From Parcubacteria group bacterium Gr01-1014_8 (GTDB lineage: Bacteria; Patescibacteriota; Minisyncoccia; Phycocordibacterales; UBA2100), in the NCBI GenBank assembly GCA_007376385.1, contig VMGC01000002.1:128001-192000 (forward strand): a DNA stretch of 64,000 nucleotides, given 5' to 3'. The stretch's first letter is position 1. Every line of letters starts with the position of its first letter. Positions 1,953-61,260 of the stretch are shown here, piece by piece. The position numbers were made by a program, and so were the translations under genes. Below the pieces are notes generated by a model, which had not been told where the DNA came from, ran no database searches, and saw only the letters and a list, made by a program, of their open reading frames with translations.

Positions 1953-2015
1953 CCCGAACACACGAAGAGCACAGGCAACGAGCAATATGATGAGCACTAT
2001 GGACAAACACAGAAT

Positions 2016-2195
2016 GAAAGGTTTCAACCTCCGGGGCAAGCCCTGGACTCTGGGAAACGAGCACCGCTCGTTTCCCAAATTCCGCGGCCTGTCTGCGTGC
2101 ATCGCACAGGCAGGCAAGCCGCGGGGTTTTGAACCTTTGCTGTCTGTGTCGCTTCCTCAGGCAAATGTACCTTTTCAGAGGAAGCCCAACCAGGT
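2016..2195 (+). repeat. Stop-codon-associated structured repeat, long variant (copy E)
   Basis: Begins TGAAAGGTTTCAACC. Shares more than 60 nt at near identity with 29920-30010, and a 3' module (GCAAGCCGCGGGGTTTTGAACC..GCTTCCTC) related to copies at 17242, 30611, 38291 and 59684. Contains perfect hairpins, for example GAAACGAGC-ACC-GCTCGTTTC. Confidence 0.6.
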
Positions 2196-2926
2196 ACGTA
2201 CAGCTTTTCGTATGGATAACTGTTGATATTGTTCTTTGGGGGTTCATCACCAAATATTTCACCGAGTCAGTAGGCGCAGAGTTCAGTTTTGTGACGACGC
2301 TTCTTGGCGCAGTCATTTTGTGGGACATATTAAGCAGAGCGCATCAAGGTACGACGATGCCTTTTTTGGAGGATGTGTGGTCGAGGAATTTTCTGAACAT
2401 TTTTGCGACTCCTCTCAAACTTCCGGAGTACTTGCTCGGCTTCATCATGACATCGCTTTTTACGACGGGCCTCGTTGTCGTTGCCATCTCGCTTTTTGCC
2501 GCGGTTGTTTTTGATTATTCGCTATTTTCGCTTGGAATATATCTCGCTCCGTTTCTCGGTATCTTGTTTTTGTTTGGCGCTGCGCTTGGTATTTTGGGCA
2601 TCGGGCTCGTGCTTCGATTCGGTCCTCCGGCCGAGTGGTTCACCTGGCCCCTTGCAGCCGTCCTTAGTCCTTTTGCGGGGGTGTTCTACCCTATCTCTAC
2701 GTTGCCTGACTGGATGCAGACAGTGGCATATCTGTTGCCGCCTGCCTATGTCTTTGAAGGCATGCGGGGAGTCATCTTGACAGGCGTTATCTCCGGCGGG
2801 TCGCTTGTGAAGGGTTTTGTACTAGCGTGTGTATACGTACTCCTCATGTATGCACTCTTCACGTATATGTATAGAATAGCTATACGAAATGGGCTTATTG
2901 CTCGGTACAGCGCCGAAGGGCCATAG
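2165..2926 (+). CDS. ABC-2 family transporter permease
   Basis: Six predicted TM segments downstream of the ABC ATPase. The start is uncertain because the track ORF start at 2129 lies inside a repeat; ATG 2165 was taken. Confidence 0.65.
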   Translation: MYLFRGSPTRYVQLFVWITVDIVLWGFITKYFTESVGAEFSFVTTLLGAVILWDILSRAHQGTTMPFLEDVWSRNFLNIFATPLKLPEYLLGFIMTSLFTTGLVVVAISLFAAVVFDYSLFSLGIYLAPFLGILFLFGAALGILGIGLVLRFGPPAEWFTWPLAAVLSPFAGVFYPISTLPDWMQTVAYLLPPAYVFEGMRGVILTGVISGGSLVKGFVLACVYVLLMYALFTYMYRIAIRNGLIARYSAEGP

Positions 2927-16808: not shown

Positions 16809-17243
16809 ATGGAAGACAGGCCCTTTGTCGGTATTGGCGTAACGATACTTAAAGATGGAAAAATTCTCCTCGGCAAAAGAGTATCAACGTATGGGACCGG
16901 AGAATATCAAACGCCTGGCGGACATCTTGAGCCTAAAGAAGCTTTTGAGGCATGTGCGCGGCGAGAAACCTTGGAGGAGTGCGGACTCGAAATAGGCTCA
17001 ATCCGTTTTCAATTTGTAGCAAATGCCGTAGGGTATGGTCTCGTGCATTACGTTCATATTGGTTTGATAACGGAATGGAAGGCAGGTGAACCTAAAAATC
17101 TTGAACCTACAAAATGCGAAGGATGGGATTGGTACTCTCTTGACGCATTGCCGGAGCCTCTTTTTGTATACACGAAATGGTCTATAGAGGCACATCAAAC
17201 AGGACTCAATTATTTCGATAGTGAGGCCCGACCAGCGAAATAA
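16809..17243 (+). CDS. NUDIX hydrolase
   Basis: Nudix box GGHLEPKEAFEACARRETLEECGL. Confidence 0.8.
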   Translation: MEDRPFVGIGVTILKDGKILLGKRVSTYGTGEYQTPGGHLEPKEAFEACARRETLEECGLEIGSIRFQFVANAVGYGLVHYVHIGLITEWKAGEPKNLEPTKCEGWDWYSLDALPEPLFVYTKWSIEAHQTGLNYFDSEARPAK

Positions 17244-17397
17244 AGGTTCCTCGGAGCTTGCTCCGAGGTATTATGGAGCTCGCTTCGCTCGCGCAGTCTC
17301 GCAGCAGAGCTGCGAGGTATTGAACCTGTGTTTGCTCCTCGGCACGGAAATGCAACAGAGTACTTTTGCATTTCTCTCGCAATGCTCGCAAATAAAA
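17242..17397 (+). repeat. Stop-codon-associated structured repeat (copy A)
   Basis: Starts at the NUDIX stop codon (TAAAGGTTCC). Contains a CCTCGGAGC-TT-GCTCCGAGG hairpin, then GAACCTGTGTTTGCTCCTCGGCACGGAAATG, and a terminal GAAATGCAA..TTGCATTTC hairpin. Reverse-complement match to 30611-30690. Confidence 0.65.
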
Positions 17398-17447
17398 TGT
17401 GAAGGCATCTTGACTCGATTTCGTGCACGGGTAGAGTATGGGGGTTC

Positions 17448-29390: not shown

Positions 29391-29921
29391 ATGCGTCCTG
29401 ATACTATGGTTGTAGAAAAATACAGAGACGTCATGAAGCTTCCGCACGATATAGAAGCCGAGCTGGACGGTGCGCCTCTGTTTGAAAATTTGGAAGCTGC
29501 AATGGGGACACTTGAGCTCGAGCATAAACGCCGTCGCAACCTTTTAGAGCACGCTGGGAAGGCAGAACGTCTCAACTACCCTGATAAGGCAACTGCGATA
29601 AAAGCAGCGATAATGAATGGAAGGTCAGCAGCAAAAGAAACAGCTGCGTGGGAGGATTTTACGCAGTCGAATCCTTCTGCAGAACAGGCGGCAATAGTTC
29701 TAGCGCACGTCTCTCATTTTAGGTCCGCGAAACCGACGCTGCTCGATATGGCAATTGATTTCTTTCTTCTTCGTATTCAGGAGGTTACTGATGCGAAAAA
29801 ATCAAGAGAGATAGTGGCTCTCGCTGCAAATGCCATTCGCAGCAGGCATCTGGACGATCCCGAAAAAAAAGGATATTTACGGAGACTGCAACTCTTAAAT
29901 GGAGTGGGCGAGGAAAAATGA
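29391..29921 (+). CDS. Hypothetical protein
   Basis: ORF. Its stop is embedded at the start of repeat copy F. Confidence 0.35.
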   Translation: MRPDTMVVEKYRDVMKLPHDIEAELDGAPLFENLEAAMGTLELEHKRRRNLLEHAGKAERLNYPDKATAIKAAIMNGRSAAKETAAWEDFTQSNPSAEQAAIVLAHVSHFRSAKPTLLDMAIDFFLLRIQEVTDAKKSREIVALAANAIRSRHLDDPEKKGYLRRLQLLNGVGEEK

Positions 29922-30058
29922 AAGGTTTCAACCCCCAAGGCAAGCCCTGGACTCTGGAAAACGAGCACCGCTCGTTTCCCAAATTCCGCGGCCTGTCTGC
30001 GTGCATCGCACAGGTACACATATATCGGCGGCATTCACCGTGGTACACTGGCACTCCC
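29920..30058 (+). repeat. Stop-codon-associated structured repeat, long variant, truncated (copy F)
   Basis: TGAAAGGTTTCAACC..GCAAGCCCTGGACTCTGG..AAACGAGCACCGCTCGTTTCCCAAATTCCGCGGCCTGTCTGCGTGCATCGCACAGG, near-identical to 2016-2110. Confidence 0.6.
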
Positions 30059-30610
30059 ATGAACACAACGATTACGACAGGGTGGCTGAAGTTTGTCATA
30101 GGATGGACAGCTGTGTTCCTATTCCGCTTGATACCATTCAGACCGCCGAATTTTGAGCCAATGTTGGCGACGATCATGCCGTTCTCAAAGCGATACGGCG
30201 TTGTGGGGAGCTTTTTGTTCGGATTCCTCGGAATTGTTCTCTACGATGCAGTAACGTCCGGCTGGGGGATATGGACACTTGTAACGTCCGTCTGCTACGG
30301 CCTGTTGGGTGTCGGAGCATATTTTTTCTTTAAGAATCGTGAGGCAACGGCAACACATTTTGTGATGTTCGGCGTCCCGAGTACGGTATTGTACGACGCT
30401 GTAACGATGATGATAGGACCCCTCTTCAATGGACAATCTTTTGCTGCGGCGCTCATAGGGCAAATTCCATTCACCGTCATGCATCTTCTTGGAACCATTG
30501 TATTTGCAACACTTCTCAGTCCCGCTTTATACCGCTGGGTCGTTCAAAATGATGTTTTGGAATTTTCTGTTCTATGGATGCAGGTTCGCTCGTTGATCGG
30601 CACTCGTTGA
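30059..30610 (+). CDS. Small polytopic membrane protein, possibly an ECF/S-component-like transporter subunit
   Basis: Five hydrophobic helices, 183 aa. ATG at 30059 taken because the upstream part of the track ORF is repeat sequence. Confidence 0.4.
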   Translation: MNTTITTGWLKFVIGWTAVFLFRLIPFRPPNFEPMLATIMPFSKRYGVVGSFLFGFLGIVLYDAVTSGWGIWTLVTSVCYGLLGVGAYFFFKNREATATHFVMFGVPSTVLYDAVTMMIGPLFNGQSFAAALIGQIPFTVMHLLGTIVFATLLSPALYRWVVQNDVLEFSVLWMQVRSLIGTR

Positions 30611-30690
30611 AATTACTCCTGCTTTATTTCCGAGCCGAGGAGCAAACACAGGTTCAATACCTCGGAGCTTGCTCCGAAGAACCTTTATCT
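30611..30690 (-). repeat. Stop-codon-associated structured repeat (copy B, inverted)
   Basis: Reverse complement reads AAAGGTTCTTCGGAGCAAGCTCCGAGGTATTGAACCTGTGTTTGCTCCTCGGCTCGGAAAT. Confidence 0.65.
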
Positions 30691-31262
30691 TTGCGAGGGC
30701 GAATAAATACAAATATATCATTCGCCGAGTAGGTGTCATCGGAATTTGCTCGAAGCTCGAGTTGACGTTGTCCCGGAAGAAGAAATCGCATGGGACCAGC
30801 GATAGAAGAAAGTCCAAAAACATGAGACGTATGGGCGCTGACTGGAATAGCTTGCATACCAAGTACCAGGTGTTCGCCAGGAGGTTGATTACGATATTGG
30901 ATACGAAGCAATGGGCCTACTTGAGGTGGACATAATTCGAGCCCATGTGCCACAGCAATTTCACAAATATATTTGTAGAGTCCCGTGCCATGCTTTATTT
31001 TGTCGTAATCGAAACCCAGGCTTCGTGCTGACAGTGTCACTAATTCTACTTCTCTGCTTTTTGGCGCGTCTTGAAATGATGCGGTTTCAAGGAGTTGATG
31101 CGCGTCTTGAGTGATGTAACATCCAGCATCATTGAGCTTCTTCCGGAAAGACGATGCGGATTCCGAATGGGCAGGAAGCATGAGGCGCATGAGAACTGGC
31201 AATTTCTCTATTGATGTATCAGCATGAGCCGTATCCGTATTGGACTTGGGATAGTTTTTCAT
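30654..31262 (-). CDS. Hypothetical protein
   Basis: ORF with an ATG start. Contains Cys, His and Asp candidates but no confident family assignment. Confidence 0.35.
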   Translation of the reverse strand: MKNYPKSNTDTAHADTSIEKLPVLMRLMLPAHSESASSFRKKLNDAGCYITQDAHQLLETASFQDAPKSREVELVTLSARSLGFDYDKIKHGTGLYKYICEIAVAHGLELCPPQVGPLLRIQYRNQPPGEHLVLGMQAIPVSAHTSHVFGLSSIAGPMRFLLPGQRQLELRANSDDTYSANDIFVFIRPRKDKGSSEQAPRY

Positions 31263-31379
31263 TGTGCAAGTGTAAAGCTCCGTATACTTCGTGTCGACTG
31301 CCAGTTATGCTGAGACAGGACGTTGCGCTGGTTTCAACTTGATATATACTTCATTTTTAATGCTCCAACATCTCATCGA

Positions 31380-31437
31380 CCCCAGTACCACAAGCCCTTC
31401 GGGCTTGGCTACGGGGCGAGGTTCATTGCATGAATAT
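31380..31437 (+). promoter_or_regulatory. Conserved 5'-leader hairpin with UUCG tetraloop upstream of pyrB
   Basis: CCCCAGTACCACAAGCCCTTCGGGCTTGGCTACGGGG followed by CGAGGTTCATTGCAT. Near-identical to 61463-61544 upstream of uvrA. Confidence 0.5.
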
Positions 31438-31475
31438 ACTTGCGCGGGCGTGCAGTCCGTGGAGAAAATAATGTT

Positions 31476-36202: not shown

Positions 36203-36346
36203 GTGTACCCCATGAGATAAGGACCCGCTATAGGCTATTCACAGGAAGCTACTTTTTGAAAGAAGAATTACTCTAGCGAACGCCACCCGGTCTATCTCAC
36301 GGGGTGTACCCCAGAGAGTAAAGACTCGCTACCGGCTATTCACAGA
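36203..36346. repeat. Palindromic-arm element copy 2, with an internal 44-nt direct duplication
   Basis: Arms GTGTACCCCATGAGATAA (36203-36220) and TATCTCACGGGGTGTAC (36293-36309). The unit GTGTACCCCATGAGATAAGGACCCGCTATAGGCTATTCACAGGAAG is repeated at 36303-36346. The left arm lies 13 nt from the ZIP ATG. Confidence 0.6.
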
Positions 36347-36717: not shown

Positions 36718-37977
36718 ATGACGTTGTTACGTTTGGCACGTGTGGGAGGTGTTGCGGCTTTTGCTGTTCTCTTGTTCACACTCGTTTCGTTTGTGGGAAA
36801 CCAGCGTCTTGCTTACGCAGATGAGGTGCCCGTTTCGGGCTCTGACATTGTGTGCGACACGTATCGTCAACTGCAGGAACAGGGATTGCCGATCCCTCCA
36901 GGACTCGATGTGAGCGGTTGTGAAGGAGGTGGGGGAGGCGGCGGTGGTGGCGAACCGCCACTACCAACGGTTACAGAGTGCATAGACGGTATTGATAACG
37001 ACGGAGATGGACGTACCGATTTTCTTCCGATATACGGCGACCCCGATTGTGATAACTTCTCTGATGATAGCGAGGCGGCGAGCGGAGGAGGCGGCGGTGG
37101 CGGTTCTACTCCAGCATGTGCCGATGGCATTGATAACGACGGCGATGGGCTCGTAGATAGTGTTGACCCGGGCTGCTCAGACACTTCCGATACTGACGAG
37201 GCCGATCCTACGGGGGGCGGCGTAGGAGGTGGTGGAGGTGGCGGAGGCGGAGGCCCCGCAGCGGCGTGCGAGGACAGCATAGACAATGACCTCGATGGTC
37301 TTAAAGACATGCAAGACCCAGGGTGTGAAAATGCTTCTGACAACGACGAAACCAACGGTTCTGGTGGAGGAGGAGGCGGCGGGGGAGGTGGCGAGGCAGC
37401 GACGACAACGGCACCAACTCCAGAAATTCTCGGCGCATCAACGCCAGCACAGGAACTTTCGTGCGACTCCTACCTGACGGCATTCATTCGCTTCGGCGGA
37501 AAGAATGATGCAGACCAGGTTATGCGCCTCCAGAAAGTACTCAAAGATTACGAGAAGGCGGATGTGAATGAAAATGGTACCTACGATGCTGCAACTCTCA
37601 AGGCAGTACATGCATTCCAAACAAAGTATGCCGATGAAATTCTTACACCATGGGGTATCAAGAGCTCGACAGGCTATGTGTATCTCACGACGCGAAAGAA
37701 AGTGAATGAAATTCGGTGCGAGAATAAGAAGACATTTCCGCTTTCGGAAGAAGAACAGAAGAAAGTCGAGGAAACACGGGTTTCTGCGGCAGTCAGGGAC
37801 ATCGGCACAGACGCATCTCCCGCAAAACCAGCGGAGCCAGCAAAACCTGCAGTAGTAAAAGCTAAAGATGTAACGGACAGGACCGCCGATTCATCGTCAA
37901 AAGACGAGACAGTGCAGGTGAGCGGATTGAAGAGGGTGTGGGATTTCCTCGGCAGAATGTTCAACAGAGCGCGCTAA
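36718..37977 (+). CDS. Secreted protein with poly-Gly spacers, three Ca-binding-like Cys-DxDNDGDG repeats and a C-terminal peptidoglycan-binding-like domain
   Basis: Signal peptide. Repeats CIDGIDNDGDGRTD..DPDC, CADGIDNDGDGLVD..DPGC and CEDSIDNDLDGLKD..DPGC. C-terminal LQKVL..NGTYDAATLKAVHAFQ resembles PG_binding_1. Confidence 0.5.
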   Translation: MTLLRLARVGGVAAFAVLLFTLVSFVGNQRLAYADEVPVSGSDIVCDTYRQLQEQGLPIPPGLDVSGCEGGGGGGGGGEPPLPTVTECIDGIDNDGDGRTDFLPIYGDPDCDNFSDDSEAASGGGGGGGSTPACADGIDNDGDGLVDSVDPGCSDTSDTDEADPTGGGVGGGGGGGGGGPAAACEDSIDNDLDGLKDMQDPGCENASDNDETNGSGGGGGGGGGGEAATTTAPTPEILGASTPAQELSCDSYLTAFIRFGGKNDADQVMRLQKVLKDYEKADVNENGTYDAATLKAVHAFQTKYADEILTPWGIKSSTGYVYLTTRKKVNEIRCENKKTFPLSEEEQKKVEETRVSAAVRDIGTDASPAKPAEPAKPAVVKAKDVTDRTADSSSKDETVQVSGLKRVWDFLGRMFNRAR

Positions 37978-38290
37978 ACGAAATCAAATCGTACAGAAAC
38001 GACGCCATATTCTGGCGTCTTTTTTGTCCTATACCAACTATGACACTCTGTCCTTAGTGGTGCGCATAGATTCTGCAGCGTTGACAATAATGGACGGACT
38101 TTGTACGATGCGCGCCGTTAGAGACAAACATCTCCCGTTCCTTGTCATTTTTTGTAGGAGGTCAGGGCGGGCCCAAAGCCGACAGCTTTCACGCTGGTTT
38201 CCCTAGGTTTTGGGCCCACCCAGGATTCCTACATGATCACGTAAAATATTATACAGGGAAGATAAAAAAGGCCGCGTTGAGCGGTTTTTT

Positions 38291-38404
38291 TATTGGCGAC
38301 GTAGAGCGAGTGAAATGAACGTGTACTCATGTTCATTTCCGAGCCGAGGAGCCAACATAGGGTCGAATGCCCCGCGGCTTGCCCGCGGAATGAATACCCT
38401 TTAT
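38291..38404 (-). repeat. Stop-codon-associated structured repeat (copy D, inverted, not gene-adjacent)
   Basis: Reverse complement reads AAAGGGTATTCATTCCGCGGGCAAGCCGCGGGGCATTCGACCCTATGTTGGCTCCTCGGCTCGGAAATGAAC..GTTCATTTCACTCGCTCTACGTCGCCAATAA. The tail matches copy C (CACTCGCTCTACGTCGC). Confidence 0.65.
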
Positions 38405-38829
38405 TGCAACTCATTATAAAAAAATATCAATGGTGTTTGACAACAAGCATGAATACGTATCGAAATACTTTTCCACATGGCTAATTCATTGACACTCCAC
38501 GAGAACGCGCGATAATTCGCCTACGTTTCGTCGCGTGCGCAAAATGCGATAAAGCGAGGGGAACCAGCGGACAATATGTCCGTTGAGAACATTTTTTTTA
38601 CTCACAGCTGTCTTTTTGAAATGAAGAGACGAGGCATCGCTGACCGTGATGCGTCGTTTTTTATTATGCAAATGGACGACTGAAGTCCATGGAGCGGCTT
38701 ATTTCCATGAAATGAGCCGCTCCGTGAACTGCAAGGTTCATGAGAAAGGTCGAGTTCTGCATTGCGCCGTCCGTACGGAGGCACAATGTCAGGTTTATCA
38801 AAACTTATCAACATGAAAAATTCAAAGAT

Positions 38830-39726
38830 ATGACTAAGACTATGAAAATCGGTGCAGTTCTTGCAACAAGCGCGATGGTTTTGTCGCAGTTCGCAGCAAT
38901 TCCTGCATACGCATGTGAGGACTGGTGCTGGGGCGAAGGAAGCTCTGACGACAACAGCGTCTACATAAAGGTTTCGAACTCAGGCACAATCTACAACGAA
39001 ACTAAAGCTAAGGCAGACACTGGCGACAACGATGCCGGCGGAAGCTACGGCGGCGACGGCGGCTCTGCTGGAGACGGTGGCGACGGCGGCGAAGCTGATG
39101 TGGAAGGCGGTGTTAATTGGTGCGGAGAGTGCAGCGACGGATCGGACAGCGAAGCAAACGGAGGCGACGGCGGCAACGGCGGCGACTCGAACGGCGGCGA
39201 TGCAGGTCCGGGTGGGCTCGTAGACACTGGGGATGCTGACGCAAACGCAGGAACAGTCAACACACTCAACACGACCGATATCGCAGTTGAGGGATGTGGC
39301 TGTGAGGATGACCAGGATGAGTGCGGATGCATTCCTCCATGGCTCCGACGCGACGTTGACAACAGCGTCCGCGTGAAGGTCCACAACGACGGCACGATCA
39401 ACAACGAAACTAAAGCTAAGGCAGACACTGGCGACAACGATGCCGGCGGAAGCTACGGCGGCGATGGTGGCGGCGATTGTCACTGTGACGGCGGTGGCGA
39501 CGGTGGCGACGGCGGTGACGCTGAAGTTGGCGACGACGAAGAGGGCTGTGGTTGTGAATGGGACATCGGTGGCGGCGGCACAGCAAACGGCGGCGACGGC
39601 GGCGACGGCGGAGACGCTGACGGCGGCGACGGCGACGTAGGAGGCACGATCCGAACGGGCGACGCTCGATCGGACGCTGGCACTGTGAACGTGATGAACA
39701 CGACTCTTGTTCGTGTAACTCGCTAG
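38830..39726 (+). CDS. Secreted Gly/Asp-rich repeat protein
   Basis: Signal peptide MTKTMKIGAVLATSAMVLSQFAAIPAYA. Two near-identical ~20-aa repeats (NETKAKADTGDNDAGGSYGGDGG) encoded by exact 60-bp DNA repeats. TGDADANAGTVN motifs shared with the next gene. Confidence 0.45.
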   Translation: MTKTMKIGAVLATSAMVLSQFAAIPAYACEDWCWGEGSSDDNSVYIKVSNSGTIYNETKAKADTGDNDAGGSYGGDGGSAGDGGDGGEADVEGGVNWCGECSDGSDSEANGGDGGNGGDSNGGDAGPGGLVDTGDADANAGTVNTLNTTDIAVEGCGCEDDQDECGCIPPWLRRDVDNSVRVKVHNDGTINNETKAKADTGDNDAGGSYGGDGGGDCHCDGGGDGGDGGDAEVGDDEEGCGCEWDIGGGGTANGGDGGDGGDADGGDGDVGGTIRTGDARSDAGTVNVMNTTLVRVTR

Positions 39727-45894: not shown

Positions 45895-46068
45895 CACCAC
45901 TCCTTCGGGGTTGGGTGAAAGTCCCAATCGGCGGTATAGCCCGCGAGTTCTTAGGGACACGATTTGGTGAGATTCCAAAGCCGACCGTACAGTCGGGATG
46001 AAAGAAGGAAGCGAGGCACCCTTGTTGGATGCTTGCGTGGTAACCCCGATGGATCGGGGTTTTTTATT
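45895..46068 (+). ncRNA. FMN riboswitch (RFN element) with an SD-sequestering/terminator hairpin
   Basis: TCCTTCGGGGTTGGGTGAAAGTCCCAATCGGCGGTATAGCCCGCGAG...GGTGAGATTCCAAAGCCGACCGTACAGTCGGGATGAAAGAAGG matches the RFN core. Followed by CCCCGATGGATCGGGGTTTTTT, directly upstream of ribE. Confidence 0.85.
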
Positions 46069-46071
46069 TAT

Positions 46072-46659
46072 ATGTTTACAGGAATTATCACACATACCGG
46101 GACTATCTCTCGTACATCTCCATCAAAGATTGCGATTCGTGCAGATCGCGATTTTGTGCAAAAGTTGGGTTACGGCACCAGCGTTAGTGTGGGCGGAGTA
46201 TGTCTCACCGTTATCTCAAAAAATAGCGATTCGTTTTCGGCGGACATTATGCCGGAAACCGCACGGCGTACTACCTTGGGAAGTCTTCATCGCGGTGACT
46301 TGGTAAATTTAGAGCATCCGGCAACCCCCTTGTCGTTCCTTTCGGGTCACATAGTGCAAGGTCATATCGATGGTATAGGGACATTACGGCAGATCCGTGC
46401 GCACAAGATGGGTTGGATCGTGTCGATCGCCTCTCCGGCAGCTCTCCTGCGCTACATCGTCGCGAAGGGATCGATAGCGGTAAATGGCATTTCACTTACG
46501 GTCATCGGAAGGGGCCGCTCATACTTCACGGTAGGTATAATCCCTCACACATGGAAAACCACGACGTTCCATGAACTCGCGCAGGGGAGCAGTGTCAACA
46601 TTGAAGTGGATGTCCTCGCAAAGTATGTCGAGACATTTGTTCGGGATCGCCGCATATGA
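46072..46659 (+). CDS. ribE: Riboflavin synthase alpha subunit
   Basis: MFTGIITHTGTI N-terminus and an internal repeat of the lumazine-binding half. Confidence 0.85.
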   Translation: MFTGIITHTGTISRTSPSKIAIRADRDFVQKLGYGTSVSVGGVCLTVISKNSDSFSADIMPETARRTTLGSLHRGDLVNLEHPATPLSFLSGHIVQGHIDGIGTLRQIRAHKMGWIVSIASPAALLRYIVAKGSIAVNGISLTVIGRGRSYFTVGIIPHTWKTTTFHELAQGSSVNIEVDVLAKYVETFVRDRRI

Positions 46660-57669: not shown

Positions 57670-59685
57670 ATGGCAACATTCAAACTCGAATCATCATATA
57701 AGCCTGCTGGGGACCAACCGCAGGCAATACAAGCCCTGTACGATGGGCTGAAAAAAGGTAAGCGGGATCAGACGCTTCTTGGCGTAACTGGGTCCGGCAA
57801 GACGTATACGATGGCGAGTATCATCGAAAAAATCGGCAAGCCAACGCTTGTCATTGCGCACAATAAGACGCTTGCGGCGCAGCTCGCATCCGAATATCGC
57901 GAGTTCTTTCCCACGCATGCGGTCCACTATTTCGTCTCATACTACGACTTCTATCAGCCGGAAGCATATGTGGCAGTTTCCGATACGTACATAGAGAAGG
58001 AAGCGCAGGTAAACGAGGATATCGAACGTTTGCGCCATGCTGCTACGCAGGCACTCTTAACGCGAAAGGACGTTATCGTCGTCGCTTCTGTTTCTTGCAT
58101 TTACGGTCTTGGAAGCCCCATTGAATATGAAAAAGTTAATTTGAAATTGCAGAAGGGAGAAACAATGACGCGGACAGGACTTACAAGAAAACTCGTATCA
58201 ATGCATTTTGAGCGAACCCCTGGGGATCTGTCTCCGGGAACATTTCGGCCACTCGGAGCAGCCGTTGAGATAATGCCGGCGAATGAGCGAGTCATTTATC
58301 GCATCGGCCTCTCGAGCGGAAAAATCGCGAACATCGAGGACATTGACCCGATTACACGTGTTATTAAAGGCGAAGAAGAAGCTGTATTTATTTTTCCCGC
58401 ACGCCACTATGTTACGCCGGAGAATGTCGTGGAAGCGGCGCTTGCGGACATTGAGGCTGAACTCGAGGCACAATTGAAGCATTTGAACGACGGCGGAAAA
58501 ATACTTGAAGCGGAACGTTTGAAGCGGCGCACACGGCAAGATCTCACGATGATACGAGAGTTTGGATTTTGCAGCGGCATCGAGAACTACTCGCGTCATT
58601 TTGATAGGCGAAAACCAGGAGAGCCACCTTACACGTTGCTTTCGTACTTCCCGAAAAAGGCGGACGGTACTCCGGATTTTCTTACGGTCATAGACGAGTC
58701 GCACGTGACGGTGCCGCAGATAGGAGCGATGTATGCAGGGGATAGGGCGAGAAAATTGACCCTTATCGAGCATGGGTTCAGACTTCCCAGCGCAGTAGAT
58801 AATCGTCCGCTTAAATTCGAGGAGTTTTTGGAAAATACCGGACAGACGCTGTATACGAGCGCTACGCCATCTCTGTATGAATTGAATAAAAGCGGGAAGC
58901 CAGTCGAAATGATAGTAAGACCGACTGGCCTCTTGGACCCAGAGATACTAGTGAGACCGATAATAGGGAGAGGAGACTACGAAGGCCAAGTCCGCGATTT
59001 CATCAAAGAAGCAGAGGCGGTAACAAAACGAGGCGCGCGGTCGCTAGTGACCGTCCTCACCAAGAAAATGGCAGAAGACCTTGCGCAATTTCTCGTAGAA
59101 CGCGGAATAAAAGCGCGCTATGTGCATAGCGACGTCCTTACTATCGAGCGCATTGAGATTCTCACAGATTTTAGGAAAGGTGTGTTCGACGTCTTGGTAG
59201 GTGTGAACTTGCTTCGTGAAGGATTGGACCTCCCTGAAGTTGAGCTGGTGGGAATTTTAGATGCTGATAAAGAAGGATTTCTTCGCTCGGAAACCTCACT
59301 TATACAGACCATGGGTCGCGCCGCACGAAATGTGAATGGACGTGTGCTTCTATACGCAGACAATATTACTGGCTCAATGGAGCGGGCAATAGGCGAGACG
59401 AATCGCCGCAGAGGGGTACAGGCAGAGTACAACAAAAAACACGGCATTACGCCGAAAACGATAGAAAAAAAGATACGAGATATCACGGGCGATATTGCGA
59501 GGGTGCGAGAACGCGCAATTAAGGAGCTAGCGGACATGGATACTGCTGCGTACGGCGGCGATAAGAGGAAAATGATAAAGGATAAACGCCGCCAGATGCA
59601 TGAAGCGGCCGATAGATTGGATTTCGAGACGGCGGCACTGCTGCGCGATGAGATACGCATCCTTGAACACGGCGTTTCAAAATAA
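57670..59685 (+). CDS. uvrB: Excinuclease ABC subunit B
   Basis: GVTGSGKT, helicase motifs, beta-hairpin region and a C-terminal UVR domain (DFETAALLRDEI). Confidence 0.95.
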   Translation: MATFKLESSYKPAGDQPQAIQALYDGLKKGKRDQTLLGVTGSGKTYTMASIIEKIGKPTLVIAHNKTLAAQLASEYREFFPTHAVHYFVSYYDFYQPEAYVAVSDTYIEKEAQVNEDIERLRHAATQALLTRKDVIVVASVSCIYGLGSPIEYEKVNLKLQKGETMTRTGLTRKLVSMHFERTPGDLSPGTFRPLGAAVEIMPANERVIYRIGLSSGKIANIEDIDPITRVIKGEEEAVFIFPARHYVTPENVVEAALADIEAELEAQLKHLNDGGKILEAERLKRRTRQDLTMIREFGFCSGIENYSRHFDRRKPGEPPYTLLSYFPKKADGTPDFLTVIDESHVTVPQIGAMYAGDRARKLTLIEHGFRLPSAVDNRPLKFEEFLENTGQTLYTSATPSLYELNKSGKPVEMIVRPTGLLDPEILVRPIIGRGDYEGQVRDFIKEAEAVTKRGARSLVTVLTKKMAEDLAQFLVERGIKARYVHSDVLTIERIEILTDFRKGVFDVLVGVNLLREGLDLPEVELVGILDADKEGFLRSETSLIQTMGRAARNVNGRVLLYADNITGSMERAIGETNRRRGVQAEYNKKHGITPKTIEKKIRDITGDIARVRERAIKELADMDTAAYGGDKRKMIKDKRRQMHEAADRLDFETAALLRDEIRILEHGVSK

Positions 59686-59790
59686 AGGTTCCTTGAAGCA
59701 AGCTCCGAGAGCTCGAACTCGTGTTTGTTCCTCGGCTCGGACATGCATATAAGTACACATGCATATCACTCGCTCTACGTCGCAAATAAG
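59684..59790 (+). repeat. Stop-codon-associated structured repeat (copy C)
   Basis: The uvrB TAA is embedded in TAAAGGTTCCTTGAAGCAAGCTCCGAGAGCTCGAACTCGTGTTTGTTCCTCGGCTCGGACATG..CACTCGCTCTACGTCGCAAATAA. Confidence 0.65.
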
Positions 59791-59821
59791 GCATAATGAA
59801 AAGCAATTTAATACTGGTGCC

Positions 59822-60745
59822 ATGCTTACGATAAAAGAAAACGTGCCGCTCGCCGAACTCTCGACATTCGAGATAGGTGGAAAGGCGAGGTATTTTGTGT
59901 CAGTGAAGACGGAAGAAGATATCAAAGAAGCGCTAGGGTGGGCGAGGGAACATGGCCACCGTTTTATCGTTATGGCCGGTGGGAGCAACGTTGTTGTGCC
60001 GGACGAAGGGCTTGATGCACTCATTATTAAGATATCTGGCGTGAATTTCAGCATCATCGATTCAACCATTGAAATAGACGCTGGCTGTGTTCTTTTACAT
60101 GTGATAAAAGCGGCGGCTGACGAAGGCTTAGGCGGTTGGGAAAAGTTGGCCGGGATACCGGGCACGGTTGGCGGTGCAGTTCGCGGCAACGCTGGTGCTT
60201 TTGGCAACGAAATAAAAGATGTCATCACATGGGTGAGAGCCATCAACACAAAAACGGGAGAAGGCCATGAGTTCGCGAACCCGGAATGTGAATTCGCATA
60301 TCGTATGAGCTATTTTAAGAAGAATCCAGAGTGGATAATCACACGTGTTCATATTTCCCTACAAAAAACCGATGCAATCGAAAGCCAAAGACTGATAACC
60401 GAAACAATAAAGGAGCGCGAAAGGCGGCACATTCAAGACGTTCGCGCAGCCGGCTCATATTTTATAAATCCCGTCGCACCTACTGATATTCGCGAGATGT
60501 ATGAGAAAGAAAAGAAAGCTCAGTCACGCGAGGGAAGAGTACCCGCGGGGTGGCTTATTGAAAAAGCGGGACTGAAGGGCAGGCGCGTCGGCGGCGCAGA
60601 AGCCAGCATGCAACATCCGAATTATATTGTGAATACAGGGAACGCGACCGCATCCGATGTTCGGAGATTAGCCGAACTCATAAAGCGCATCGTGAAGGAA
60701 AAATTTGGAGTTGAACTGCAAGAAGAGGCGGTGGTTTGGAAATGA
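59822..60745 (+). CDS. murB: UDP-N-acetylenolpyruvoylglucosamine reductase
   Basis: FAD-binding N-terminus (LSTFEIGGKARYF..MAGGSNVV) and a MurB C-terminal domain. Confidence 0.85.
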   Translation: MLTIKENVPLAELSTFEIGGKARYFVSVKTEEDIKEALGWAREHGHRFIVMAGGSNVVVPDEGLDALIIKISGVNFSIIDSTIEIDAGCVLLHVIKAAADEGLGGWEKLAGIPGTVGGAVRGNAGAFGNEIKDVITWVRAINTKTGEGHEFANPECEFAYRMSYFKKNPEWIITRVHISLQKTDAIESQRLITETIKERERRHIQDVRAAGSYFINPVAPTDIREMYEKEKKAQSREGRVPAGWLIEKAGLKGRRVGGAEASMQHPNYIVNTGNATASDVRRLAELIKRIVKEKFGVELQEEAVVWK

Positions 60746-60763: not shown

Positions 60764-60955
60764 CTACTCCCGGTCAAAGACCCACACGTACAGTACAAAC
60801 CAGCCGATGATGGTCCATGCGATGGCAAGATTGGTAAATATGACGCCGCCAGCGTTCGGATGGCGCCGTATCAAAGCCAGTATTCCGGGGAAAAAATACA
60901 CGTATGTAGCCATAGCCACGTAGAGATAAACCATGAAATGCAAAAAAAGCAACAT
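60764..60955 (-). CDS. Superinfection-immunity-like small membrane protein (Imm_superinfect family), paralog 1
   Basis: YFFPGILALIRRHPNAGGVIFTNLAIAWTIIGWFVLYVWVF matches the YxLPxIIAxxRxH...N...GWTxIGW pattern. Confidence 0.55.
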   Translation of the reverse strand: MLLFLHFMVYLYVAMATYVYFFPGILALIRRHPNAGGVIFTNLAIAWTIIGWFVLYVWVFDRE

Positions 60956-61080: not shown

Positions 61081-61260
61081 CTAATTAGTACTTTGTCTGT
61101 CAAATACCCACGCGAACAAGACAAACCATCCAATGATGGTCCAGCCGATGGCGATGTTCGTAAAGAAAATACCGCCGGGACTAGAATGGCGCAGAATGAC
61201 AGCCAATATTGTGGGGAAGAAATACACGAACAACCCTCCCGCAACGTATGCGTATATCAT
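61081..61260 (-). CDS. Superinfection-immunity-like small membrane protein, paralog 2 (tandem duplicate)
   Basis: YFFPTILAVILRHSSPGGIFFTNIAIGWTIIGWFVLFAWVF. DNA is about 75% identical to paralog 1. Confidence 0.55.
   Translation of the reverse strand: MIYAYVAGGLFVYFFPTILAVILRHSSPGGIFFTNIAIGWTIIGWFVLFAWVFDRQSTN

Follow-up and report, generated by a model that had tools for sequence, protein, structure and literature searches.

Incomplete copies of a hairpin-rich Patescibacteria repeat upstream of two membrane-protein genes of Parcubacteria group bacterium Gr01-1014_8

Long copies E and F and the adjacent genes

The window analysed here is a stretch of 64,000 nucleotides from contig VMGC01000002.1 of Parcubacteria group bacterium Gr01-1014_8. 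It contains six copies of a repeat family, two of the long form (E and F) and four of the short form. Copy E (2014..2153, forward strand) is the 5' 140 nt of a long-subfamily element and lies between an ABC ATPase gene (stop codon 1950-1952) and an ABC-2 permease gene. Copy F (29918..30014, forward strand) is the 5' 97 nt of such an element, stopping in the loop of its third hairpin, and lies between a gene encoding a 176-aa protein (ORF 29391..29921) and the gene of an ECF transporter S-component (30059-30610).

Repeat comparison within the window yields a 98-nt direct repeat (family label D5) at 2013-2110 and 29917-30014, with 94 of the 98 bases identical (96%). A 50-mer from this repeat occurs at these two sites only, the chance expectation being 0.00, and the near-identity of the two copies proposed in the first-pass annotation is thus confirmed. 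The four substitutions, the same as those quoted in the first-pass annotation, fall in CTCCGGGG/CCCCAAGG and GGGAAAC/GGAAAAC. Both perfect hairpins proposed for the element are present in copy E, GAAACGAGC-ACC-GCTCGTTTC at 2055-2075 and GTGC-ATC-GCAC at 2097-2107. The segment 2010-2150 folds into a closing stem with three hairpins at -78.5 kcal/mol (z = -7.9, none of 200 shuffled sequences being as good), and its reverse strand has z = -7.3. In copy E the closing stem P1 is formed by 2017-2024 and 2131-2138, and encloses hairpin 1 (2030-2047), hairpin 2 (2051-2077) and hairpin 3 (2082-2124). The conserved core described below begins at 2139, and its first 15 nt (2139-2153) are retained. Scans for promoter and terminator signals found none in E or F. 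In particular there is no intrinsic terminator in either copy, the core hairpin being followed by CUCGCUCUACGUC and not by a run of Us.

The copies are shorter than first supposed. Copy E had been assigned to 2016-2195, but its repeat-derived part stops at 2153, and 2154-2195 is native permease coding sequence. Similarly, copy F had been extended to 30058, but the repeat stops at 30014, and 30015-30058 is the native upstream region of the ECF S-component gene. An overlap with the stop codon of the upstream gene had been proposed for both copies and holds for one of them. The TGA of copy F (29919-29921) is the stop codon of the 176-aa gene. The 5' end of copy E is ATGAAAGG, which contains ATG and TGA, but this TGA (2015-2017) closes no gene, the ATPase gene ending at 1952, 64 nt upstream. 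The spacer between the ATPase gene and copy E (1953..2013) is missing at the orthologous loci. As had been noted, the open reading frames 2129..2926 and 29918..30610 both pass through repeat sequence.

Long copies with intact 3' parts are found in sibling assemblies of the same strain. Copy E is 100% identical to L001:10800-10939, and contig L001 runs on into the full core. Contigs L001 and L073 overlap at this locus by exactly their k-mer length; the element is complete here, and a 62-nt spacer separates it from the native permease start ATGAGTTTTCGAAGAATATACGCCATCTTCCTCAGGCAAATG. A Logan contig from another run contains the intact right side of the locus. Compared with the sibling assemblies, the window lacks 145 nt (L073 positions 85-229) at the junction 2153..2154, namely the rest of the core, the 62-nt spacer, permease codons 1-9 and part of codon 10. 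The endpoints share a 2-nt microhomology, CT, and the flanks contain no mismatches in 2153 + 5028 nt (7181 nt).

The permease orthologs are 266-267 aa long and begin with MNLKRIYAIFLRQM, and in the sibling assemblies the native start MSFRRIYAIFLRQM... is 13 codons before ATG 2165. The latter codon, proposed earlier as the true start, corresponds to the second methionine of MNLKRIYAIFLRQM (Met13) and hence cannot be retained in that role. The nine codons for RIYAIFLRQ differ among species only synonymously, and thus are translated. The window has no native start codon because the 145 nt are absent: their loss removed it together with the first nine codons, so that the six-frame open reading frame begins within the repeat, at TTG 2129. 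The resulting frame (2129..2926) encodes 265 aa compared to the native 266. Positions 2129-2152 (TTG, then NLCCLCR) are repeat-derived, and native sequence begins at 2153/2154 with FLRQ, followed by M13 at ATG 2165. The N-terminus of the permease has been lost or overwritten in the window, which is more than a spurious extension, and its annotation falls back on Met13. A junction through an 'MNL' microhomology, pairing TTG-AAC-CTT of the repeat with ATG-AAC-CTT of L003, was considered and rejected, since the bases that follow are repeat-derived and the intact allele starts with MSF.

The situation at copy F is simpler, as only non-coding DNA has been lost. The window lacks 123 nt (L075 positions 1172-1294) at the junction 30014..30015, that is, the 3' half of the element and 25 nt of spacer. 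Contig L075 contains the full-length element and the 25-nt spacer, followed by a conserved promoter-like region; the flanks differ from it by one mismatch in 1767 nt. This region (30041..30061) consists of the extended -10-like motif TGGTACACT, a 9-nt spacer and ATG 30059. The motif is retained in L068, L070 and L071, and the arrangement TGGTAYACT-N7-CCCATG directly upstream of the start is conserved in four lineages. Most orthologs of the S-component are 172-184 aa long and start at a methionine aligned with ATG 30059. The aligned methionine, the conserved upstream motif and the statistics of gene starts given below show that ATG 30059 is the real start, as the first-pass annotation had it. 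The extension to 29918 is an artefact of ORF calling, arising because the element begins with an ATG, which becomes the opening codon, and the frame through it is open. The mRNA of this gene is probably leaderless or nearly so.

The latter feature may be common in this genome. A Shine-Dalgarno-like motif precedes 4 of 29 gene starts in the window, and a TAnnnT hexamer is found 4-12 nt upstream of 15 of 31 gene starts compared to 8% of all ATGs. This suggests widespread leaderless or very-short-leader mRNAs among the genes of the window. The scarcity of Shine-Dalgarno motifs and the position of the hexamers fit the reported absence of the anti-Shine-Dalgarno motif in about half of Parcubacteria (PMC9297842).

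The 145-nt and 123-nt gaps are probably due either to deletion or to an error in the assembly of this metagenome-assembled genome (MAG). The 100% identity of the flanks to intact sibling assemblies favours an artefact or a very recent event. On the other hand, the junctions share only 0-2 nt of homology, and thus a mis-join of k-mers in a de Bruijn graph is hard to picture. One possibility, to which we give somewhat less than an even chance, is that both truncations are genuine, the permease being translated from ATG 2165, or from TTG 2129 with the surrogate N-terminus (M)NLCCLCR, or being inactivated. Hairpin-rich DNA is prone to deletion. Microhomology of 0-2 nt is what illegitimate or slippage deletion of such DNA leaves, and the frame is open from TTG 2129 at near-native length (265 versus 266 aa). 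However, this would require two independent events at the only two long copies of the window, whereas three other assemblies with 100% identical flanks contain the intact sequence. Moreover, TTG 2129 lies inside the strong P1 stem, and purifying selection in relatives maintains both the lost RIYAI and the retained FLRQ. If the deletion is true, initiation at ATG 2165 would produce a protein lacking 13 conserved residues, and initiation at TTG 2129 would begin with NLCCLCR and be buried in the P1 stem.

Architecture and distribution of the repeat family

The four short copies have the following positions. S17 (17238..17398, forward strand, 79.8 bits) consists of a three-hairpin P1 domain and the core, and the NUDIX gene upstream of it ends at its TAA (17241-17243). 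S59 (59680..59791, forward strand, 78.2 bits) lies between uvrB and murB, and its TAA (59683-59685) is the uvrB stop codon. S30 (30592..30691, reverse strand, 26.4 bits) has a degenerate core and is located within a strain-specific insertion of approximately 866 nt between the ECF S-component and OTCase genes. S38 (38288..38406, reverse strand, 96.3 bits) is antisense to both neighbouring genes, and its 3' end adjoins the T-tract of a terminator-like hairpin at 38270-38296. The six-frame murB open reading frame (59759..60745) is extended through S59, the same artefact as had been described for E and F; the murB start is likely ATG 59822, the first in-frame ATG outside the repeat.

Family units are 85-195 nt long, the full long element being approximately 194 nt. 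The 5' end is AATAAAGG in the short form and ATGAAAGG in the long form, and carries a stop codon. It is followed by the P1 stem, AAAGGTTC.../...GAACCTKT, with zero to three hairpins inside. The core of approximately 74 nt is one long imperfect hairpin (P2, conserved internal loops, P3) that ends with ..AATAAA and has the layout GTTAGC-TCCTCGGCTCGG-[P3 hairpin]-CTCGCTCTACGTC-GCTAAT-AAA. Under the best-supported reading, the long form represents a subfamily specific to this lineage, with three copies of recent origin.

In an alignment of 32 core sequences, 93% of the cells in P2 and P3 are paired and 11 of 18 base pairs have double changes, a result equalled by none of 500 shuffles. Control structures slid by one to three columns have 41-48% paired cells (about 43%). 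Covariation in P2 is represented by GUUAGC/GCUAAU, GUUGGC/GCCAAU and GUUUGC/GCAAAU, and by CUGUC/GACAG in the long subfamily. Unpaired nucleotides of the core are nearly invariant across CPR classes. The covariance model R1 built from this alignment finds four copies in the window and 44 copies in 290 kb of fetched loci, and scores the long-variant core at 57-58 bits. The wobble test for the transcribed strand gave 9 G-U against 22 A-C, counts inflated by related copies, and revealed no strand preference; thus the hairpins could function in a transcript of either strand or in single-stranded DNA. An invariant outer G-U pair had been considered as a marker of the RNA strand and was dropped in view of the same counts.

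The element has no match in Rfam 15, neither at the gathering score in the window and four CPR loci nor at E-values up to 10 with E, S17 and a minimal copy; the matches elsewhere in those scans are an FMN riboswitch and tRNAs only. Literal core sequences had no match in the literature, and a search for CPR together with MITE or REP returned nothing relevant.

A search of the species-representative genome collection with an 18-base core pattern yielded 62 loci, approximately 40 of them true copies. The latter come from MAGs labelled Paceibacterota, Kaiserbacteria, Komeilibacteria, Taylorbacteria, Zambryskibacteria, Saccharibacteria and other Parcubacteria or Patescibacteria. The remaining loci (L006-L008, L015, L026, L040, L047, L054, L059-L061) represent one conserved coding context in high-G+C MAGs of Solirubrobacterales and other Actinobacteria. 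Their flanks are unrelated to the repeat, and they were taken as chance or coding matches. The viral contigs and the phage and plasmid collections contain no match to the element. Metagenome scans with long-variant strings gave 0 matches, these patterns being too specific.

The proteins encoded in the window point to Gr01-1014_8 as the source, with relatives in Candidatus Kaiserbacteria. In three relatives the junction of the ATPase and permease genes contains no element, and the two genes overlap or are at most 22 nt apart. The ECF S-component locus is empty in two relatives, and in another one it contains a different, reverse-oriented family member. This copy (L068/L069:2458-2560), situated upstream of the orthologous gene, forms the predicted N-terminus (MFTSEPRSQKTEP...) of P0125 and P0127, two protein calls of 229-230 aa. 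The same intergenic spot has been struck independently in different lineages.

The three long copies are at least 96% identical and occupy unrelated loci. At least eight copies are present in one Paceibacterota MAG, where the full-length copies that were compared share 96-98% identity and have unrelated flanks. Genomes differ strongly in copy number, and some contain bursts of near-identical copies. Contigs L001, L002, L073 and L075 break off within the repeat or next to it. The upstream gene is closed by the stop codon of the element at S17, S59 and F, and the same holds for 5-6 of 20 copies outside the window. The orientation relative to neighbouring genes is mixed, several copies facing divergent genes. 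All-against-all comparison of open reading frames within 3.5 kb of 33 copies revealed no recurrent neighbour family. Among the copies examined there was no transposase neighbour or autonomous copy, and no TnpA or TnpB gene was seen adjoining any copy.

The ends have no terminal inverted repeats, as the 5' (T/A)AAAGGTTCC has no complement in the 3' ...CTACGTCGCYAATAAA of short or long copies. No variable target-site duplication was found in the near-identical copies of one MAG or in the three long copies, and only the invariant AATAAA-type termini recur. There is no clean pair of filled and empty sites for a short copy, and therefore the ends assigned to the element are provisional, as would be any target. 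The idea of AATAAA as a target motif is weakened by ATGAAAGG at all three independent long-subfamily loci. Since the left octamer differs by subfamily and is constant in these three copies, it is part of the element and not a target motif.

Nature of the element

CPR genomes are small and are usually thought to be repeat-poor. We consider it likely that E and F are long-subfamily copies of a dispersed, non-autonomous, hairpin-rich selfish repeat family of Patescibacteria (CPR), and that the gap at E accounts for the 5' end of the permease open reading frame. The element behaves like selfish DNA: it is multi-copy, breaks short-read assemblies, has near-identical copies at unrelated loci and is missing from orthologous sites of relatives. 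It lies between genes, often supplying the upstream stop codon, and in the population both long copies would be full length and lie cleanly in intergenic spacers. The lack of terminal inverted repeats and of a variable target duplication, together with the covarying hairpins at both ends, would make a structure-dependent single-strand mechanism (HUH/Y1-like or similar) more plausible than cut-and-paste by a DDE transposase.

It is uncommon for a selfish repeat to keep a conserved core in CPR classes this distant from each other, and such conservation would be in line with a functional RNA or with a conserved protein-binding site. It may be that the element is primarily a functional RNA, either structured in 3'-UTRs and intergenic regions or a multi-copy small RNA, spread by selection for its function, with the conserved internal loops UCCUCGGCUC and CUCGCUCUACGUC binding a conserved CPR factor. 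Strong covariation in P2 and P3 and the near-invariance of the unpaired core nucleotides between classes are what such a role would produce. In addition, the element often starts exactly at the stop codon of the co-directional upstream gene, and the co-directional contexts of E and F pointed out in the first-pass annotation are consistent with it. However, we regard this explanation as unlikely. S38 is antisense to both its neighbours, several copies face divergent genes, the copies are not associated with any particular gene, no promoter- or terminator-like signal was found in E or F, and the wobble test shows no strand preference. Besides, the copy number is very variable between genomes, with near-identical bursts, and copies are dispensable at orthologous sites. 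The mixed orientations and unrelated neighbour genes also differ from what is characteristic of a cis-regulatory leader or riboswitch. The first-pass annotation had suggested that the element may be transcribed as a leader or sRNA.

The preferred reading, a selfish repeat, places the element among the non-autonomous repeats of bacteria, but it has the defining features of none of the ERIC, REP, BOX or IS200/IS605-type families. Similar to ERIC/IRU and REP/BIME of enterobacteria, it is approximately 100-200 nt long, multi-copy and intergenic, with imperfect palindromes folding as long hairpins; its presence varies at orthologous sites, and it would often be co-transcribed at gene ends. However, it has no sequence similarity to them and no GTAG-type REP head, no RAYT partner was identified, and it consists of two domains (the variable branched P1 and the conserved core) and occurs throughout a superphylum and not in one family. 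In particular, REP and BIME are defined by 20-40-nt palindromes, the GTAG head and RAYT, whereas the units here are 85-195 nt long. The BOX element of Streptococcus pneumoniae is likewise modular, with conserved end modules and variable internal hairpins, non-autonomous and without a known transposase. Its sequence is unrelated, and its modules are in tandem, whereas the variable modules of the CPR element are nested in the closing stem, forming a cloverleaf-like junction.

The IS200/IS605-derived PATEs (HUH/Y1) share with the element the lack of terminal inverted repeats and variable target-site duplications, covarying subterminal hairpins near both ends and a short conserved A/T-rich motif at both boundaries. 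However, the end hairpins of PATEs are similar to each other and are served by a Y1 transposase, whereas here the left (P1) and right (P2/P3) hairpins are dissimilar, the octamer varies by subfamily (AATAAAGG versus ATGAAAGG), and no recurrent neighbouring protein was found. Like a classical MITE, the element is small, multi-copy and non-coding, with presence/absence polymorphism, but lacks the terminal inverted repeats and the target-site duplication.

The Rickettsia palindromic elements (RPEs) and the Neisseria Correia elements are also selfish palindromic repeats that lie in or abut open reading frames and change predicted protein ends, ORF callers reading through them. However, RPEs insert in frame within genes and remain there as peptide segments, whereas the CPR element overlaps coding sequence only through the stop codon that it supplies, or as a consequence of deletion or artefact. 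Correia elements, unlike this one, have terminal inverted repeats and a TA duplication. Finally, the integron attC site resembles the element as a structured site of single-strand type immediately after an ORF stop codon, with a conserved stem and variable terminal structure. Instead of RYYYAAC...GTTRRRY, the element has 5'-GTTAGC...GCTAAT-3' with reversed order of the boxes, there is no integrase or cassette array, and the neighbours are housekeeping genes (uvrB, murB, NUDIX, ABC transporter).

We think it quite doubtful that the core serves for recognition or catalysis in an undescribed CPR-specific mobility system or functional RNA class, the 3' loss at both long copies then being real instability or excision associated with the element and not a fault of the assembly.

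The last alternative is that the repeat-encoded peptide KGFNxxGKPWTLxNEHRSFPKFRGLSACIAQ is a real N-terminal domain shared by the two membrane proteins. A search of 1.84 billion representative proteins yielded one true match only, an 87-aa open reading frame called across another long copy of this organism, the third one, which is full length and lies between a cupredoxin-domain gene and secA. The four substitutions between E and F cause three amino-acid changes, and three of three are non-synonymous at the codon level. Although no stop codon interrupts the peptide within the repeat, and at F it is read in phase with the ECF S-component gene, a shared domain is extremely improbable: the peptide is missing from all orthologs of both genes, its only database match is another repeat copy, at E it is out of frame with the permease, its substitutions are those just described, and at F a conserved promoter-like motif separates the repeat from ATG 30059. 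This agrees with the first-pass annotation, in which the peptide was not a conserved domain. The spurious N-terminal extensions are ordinary, and the original claim concerning them was largely right.

The repeat breaks short-read CPR assemblies and misleads gene callers, creating false N-terminal extensions and false small open reading frames. The permease considered here is annotated without its conserved first 13 residues, and users of the deposited MAG should check the gaps against reads. A family with a core common to CPR classes, absent from Rfam and without a match in the literature, is a useful marker, and may provide a handle on DNA exchange and rearrangement in CPR or on an unrecognised RNA.

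Other features of the window

An FMN riboswitch (45897-46013, forward strand, 104 bits) is situated upstream of a riboflavin synthase-like gene encoding two Lum_binding domains. The open reading frame 45964..46659 thus carries a further spurious 5' extension, its start, TTG 45964, lying inside the riboswitch. The scans of the window revealed no tRNA.

The insertion containing S30 (30611-31475) separates the ECF S-component and OTCase genes, which are adjacent in L070 and L071. It contains an open reading frame of 202 aa (30654..31262, reverse strand) that abuts S30, its last 10 codons running into the repeat; this protein has no homolog but itself and no Pfam match. A 31-nt piece of the insertion, 31349-31379 (CTTCATTTTTAATGCTCCAACATCTCATCGA), is identical to L071:3057-3087, the start region of OTCase in a different species, and lies approximately 100 nt upstream of the OTCase start in the window (ATG 31476, ATGCAACATCTGATCGAA). 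Recombination with a relative may have left it behind. Between this duplicated fragment and the real start, at 31380-31414, there is a long hairpin with a UUCG loop, CCCCAGTACCACAAGCCC-TTCG-GGCTTGGCTACGGGG.

Several further repeats occur in the window. A 42-nt direct repeat (36203-36244 and 36304-36345, 79% identity, 101 nt apart) lies in the intergenic region before a divergent ZIP transporter gene, upstream of it. The genes 36718-37977 and 38740-39726 contain Gly/Asp-rich internal tandem repeats of the GGDGG type (families D1, D2 and D4), and a 148-nt unit is repeated at 38950 and 39358. A 130-nt direct repeat (family D3) is found at 60773-60902 and 61099-61228, the copies being 75% identical and 326 nt apart.
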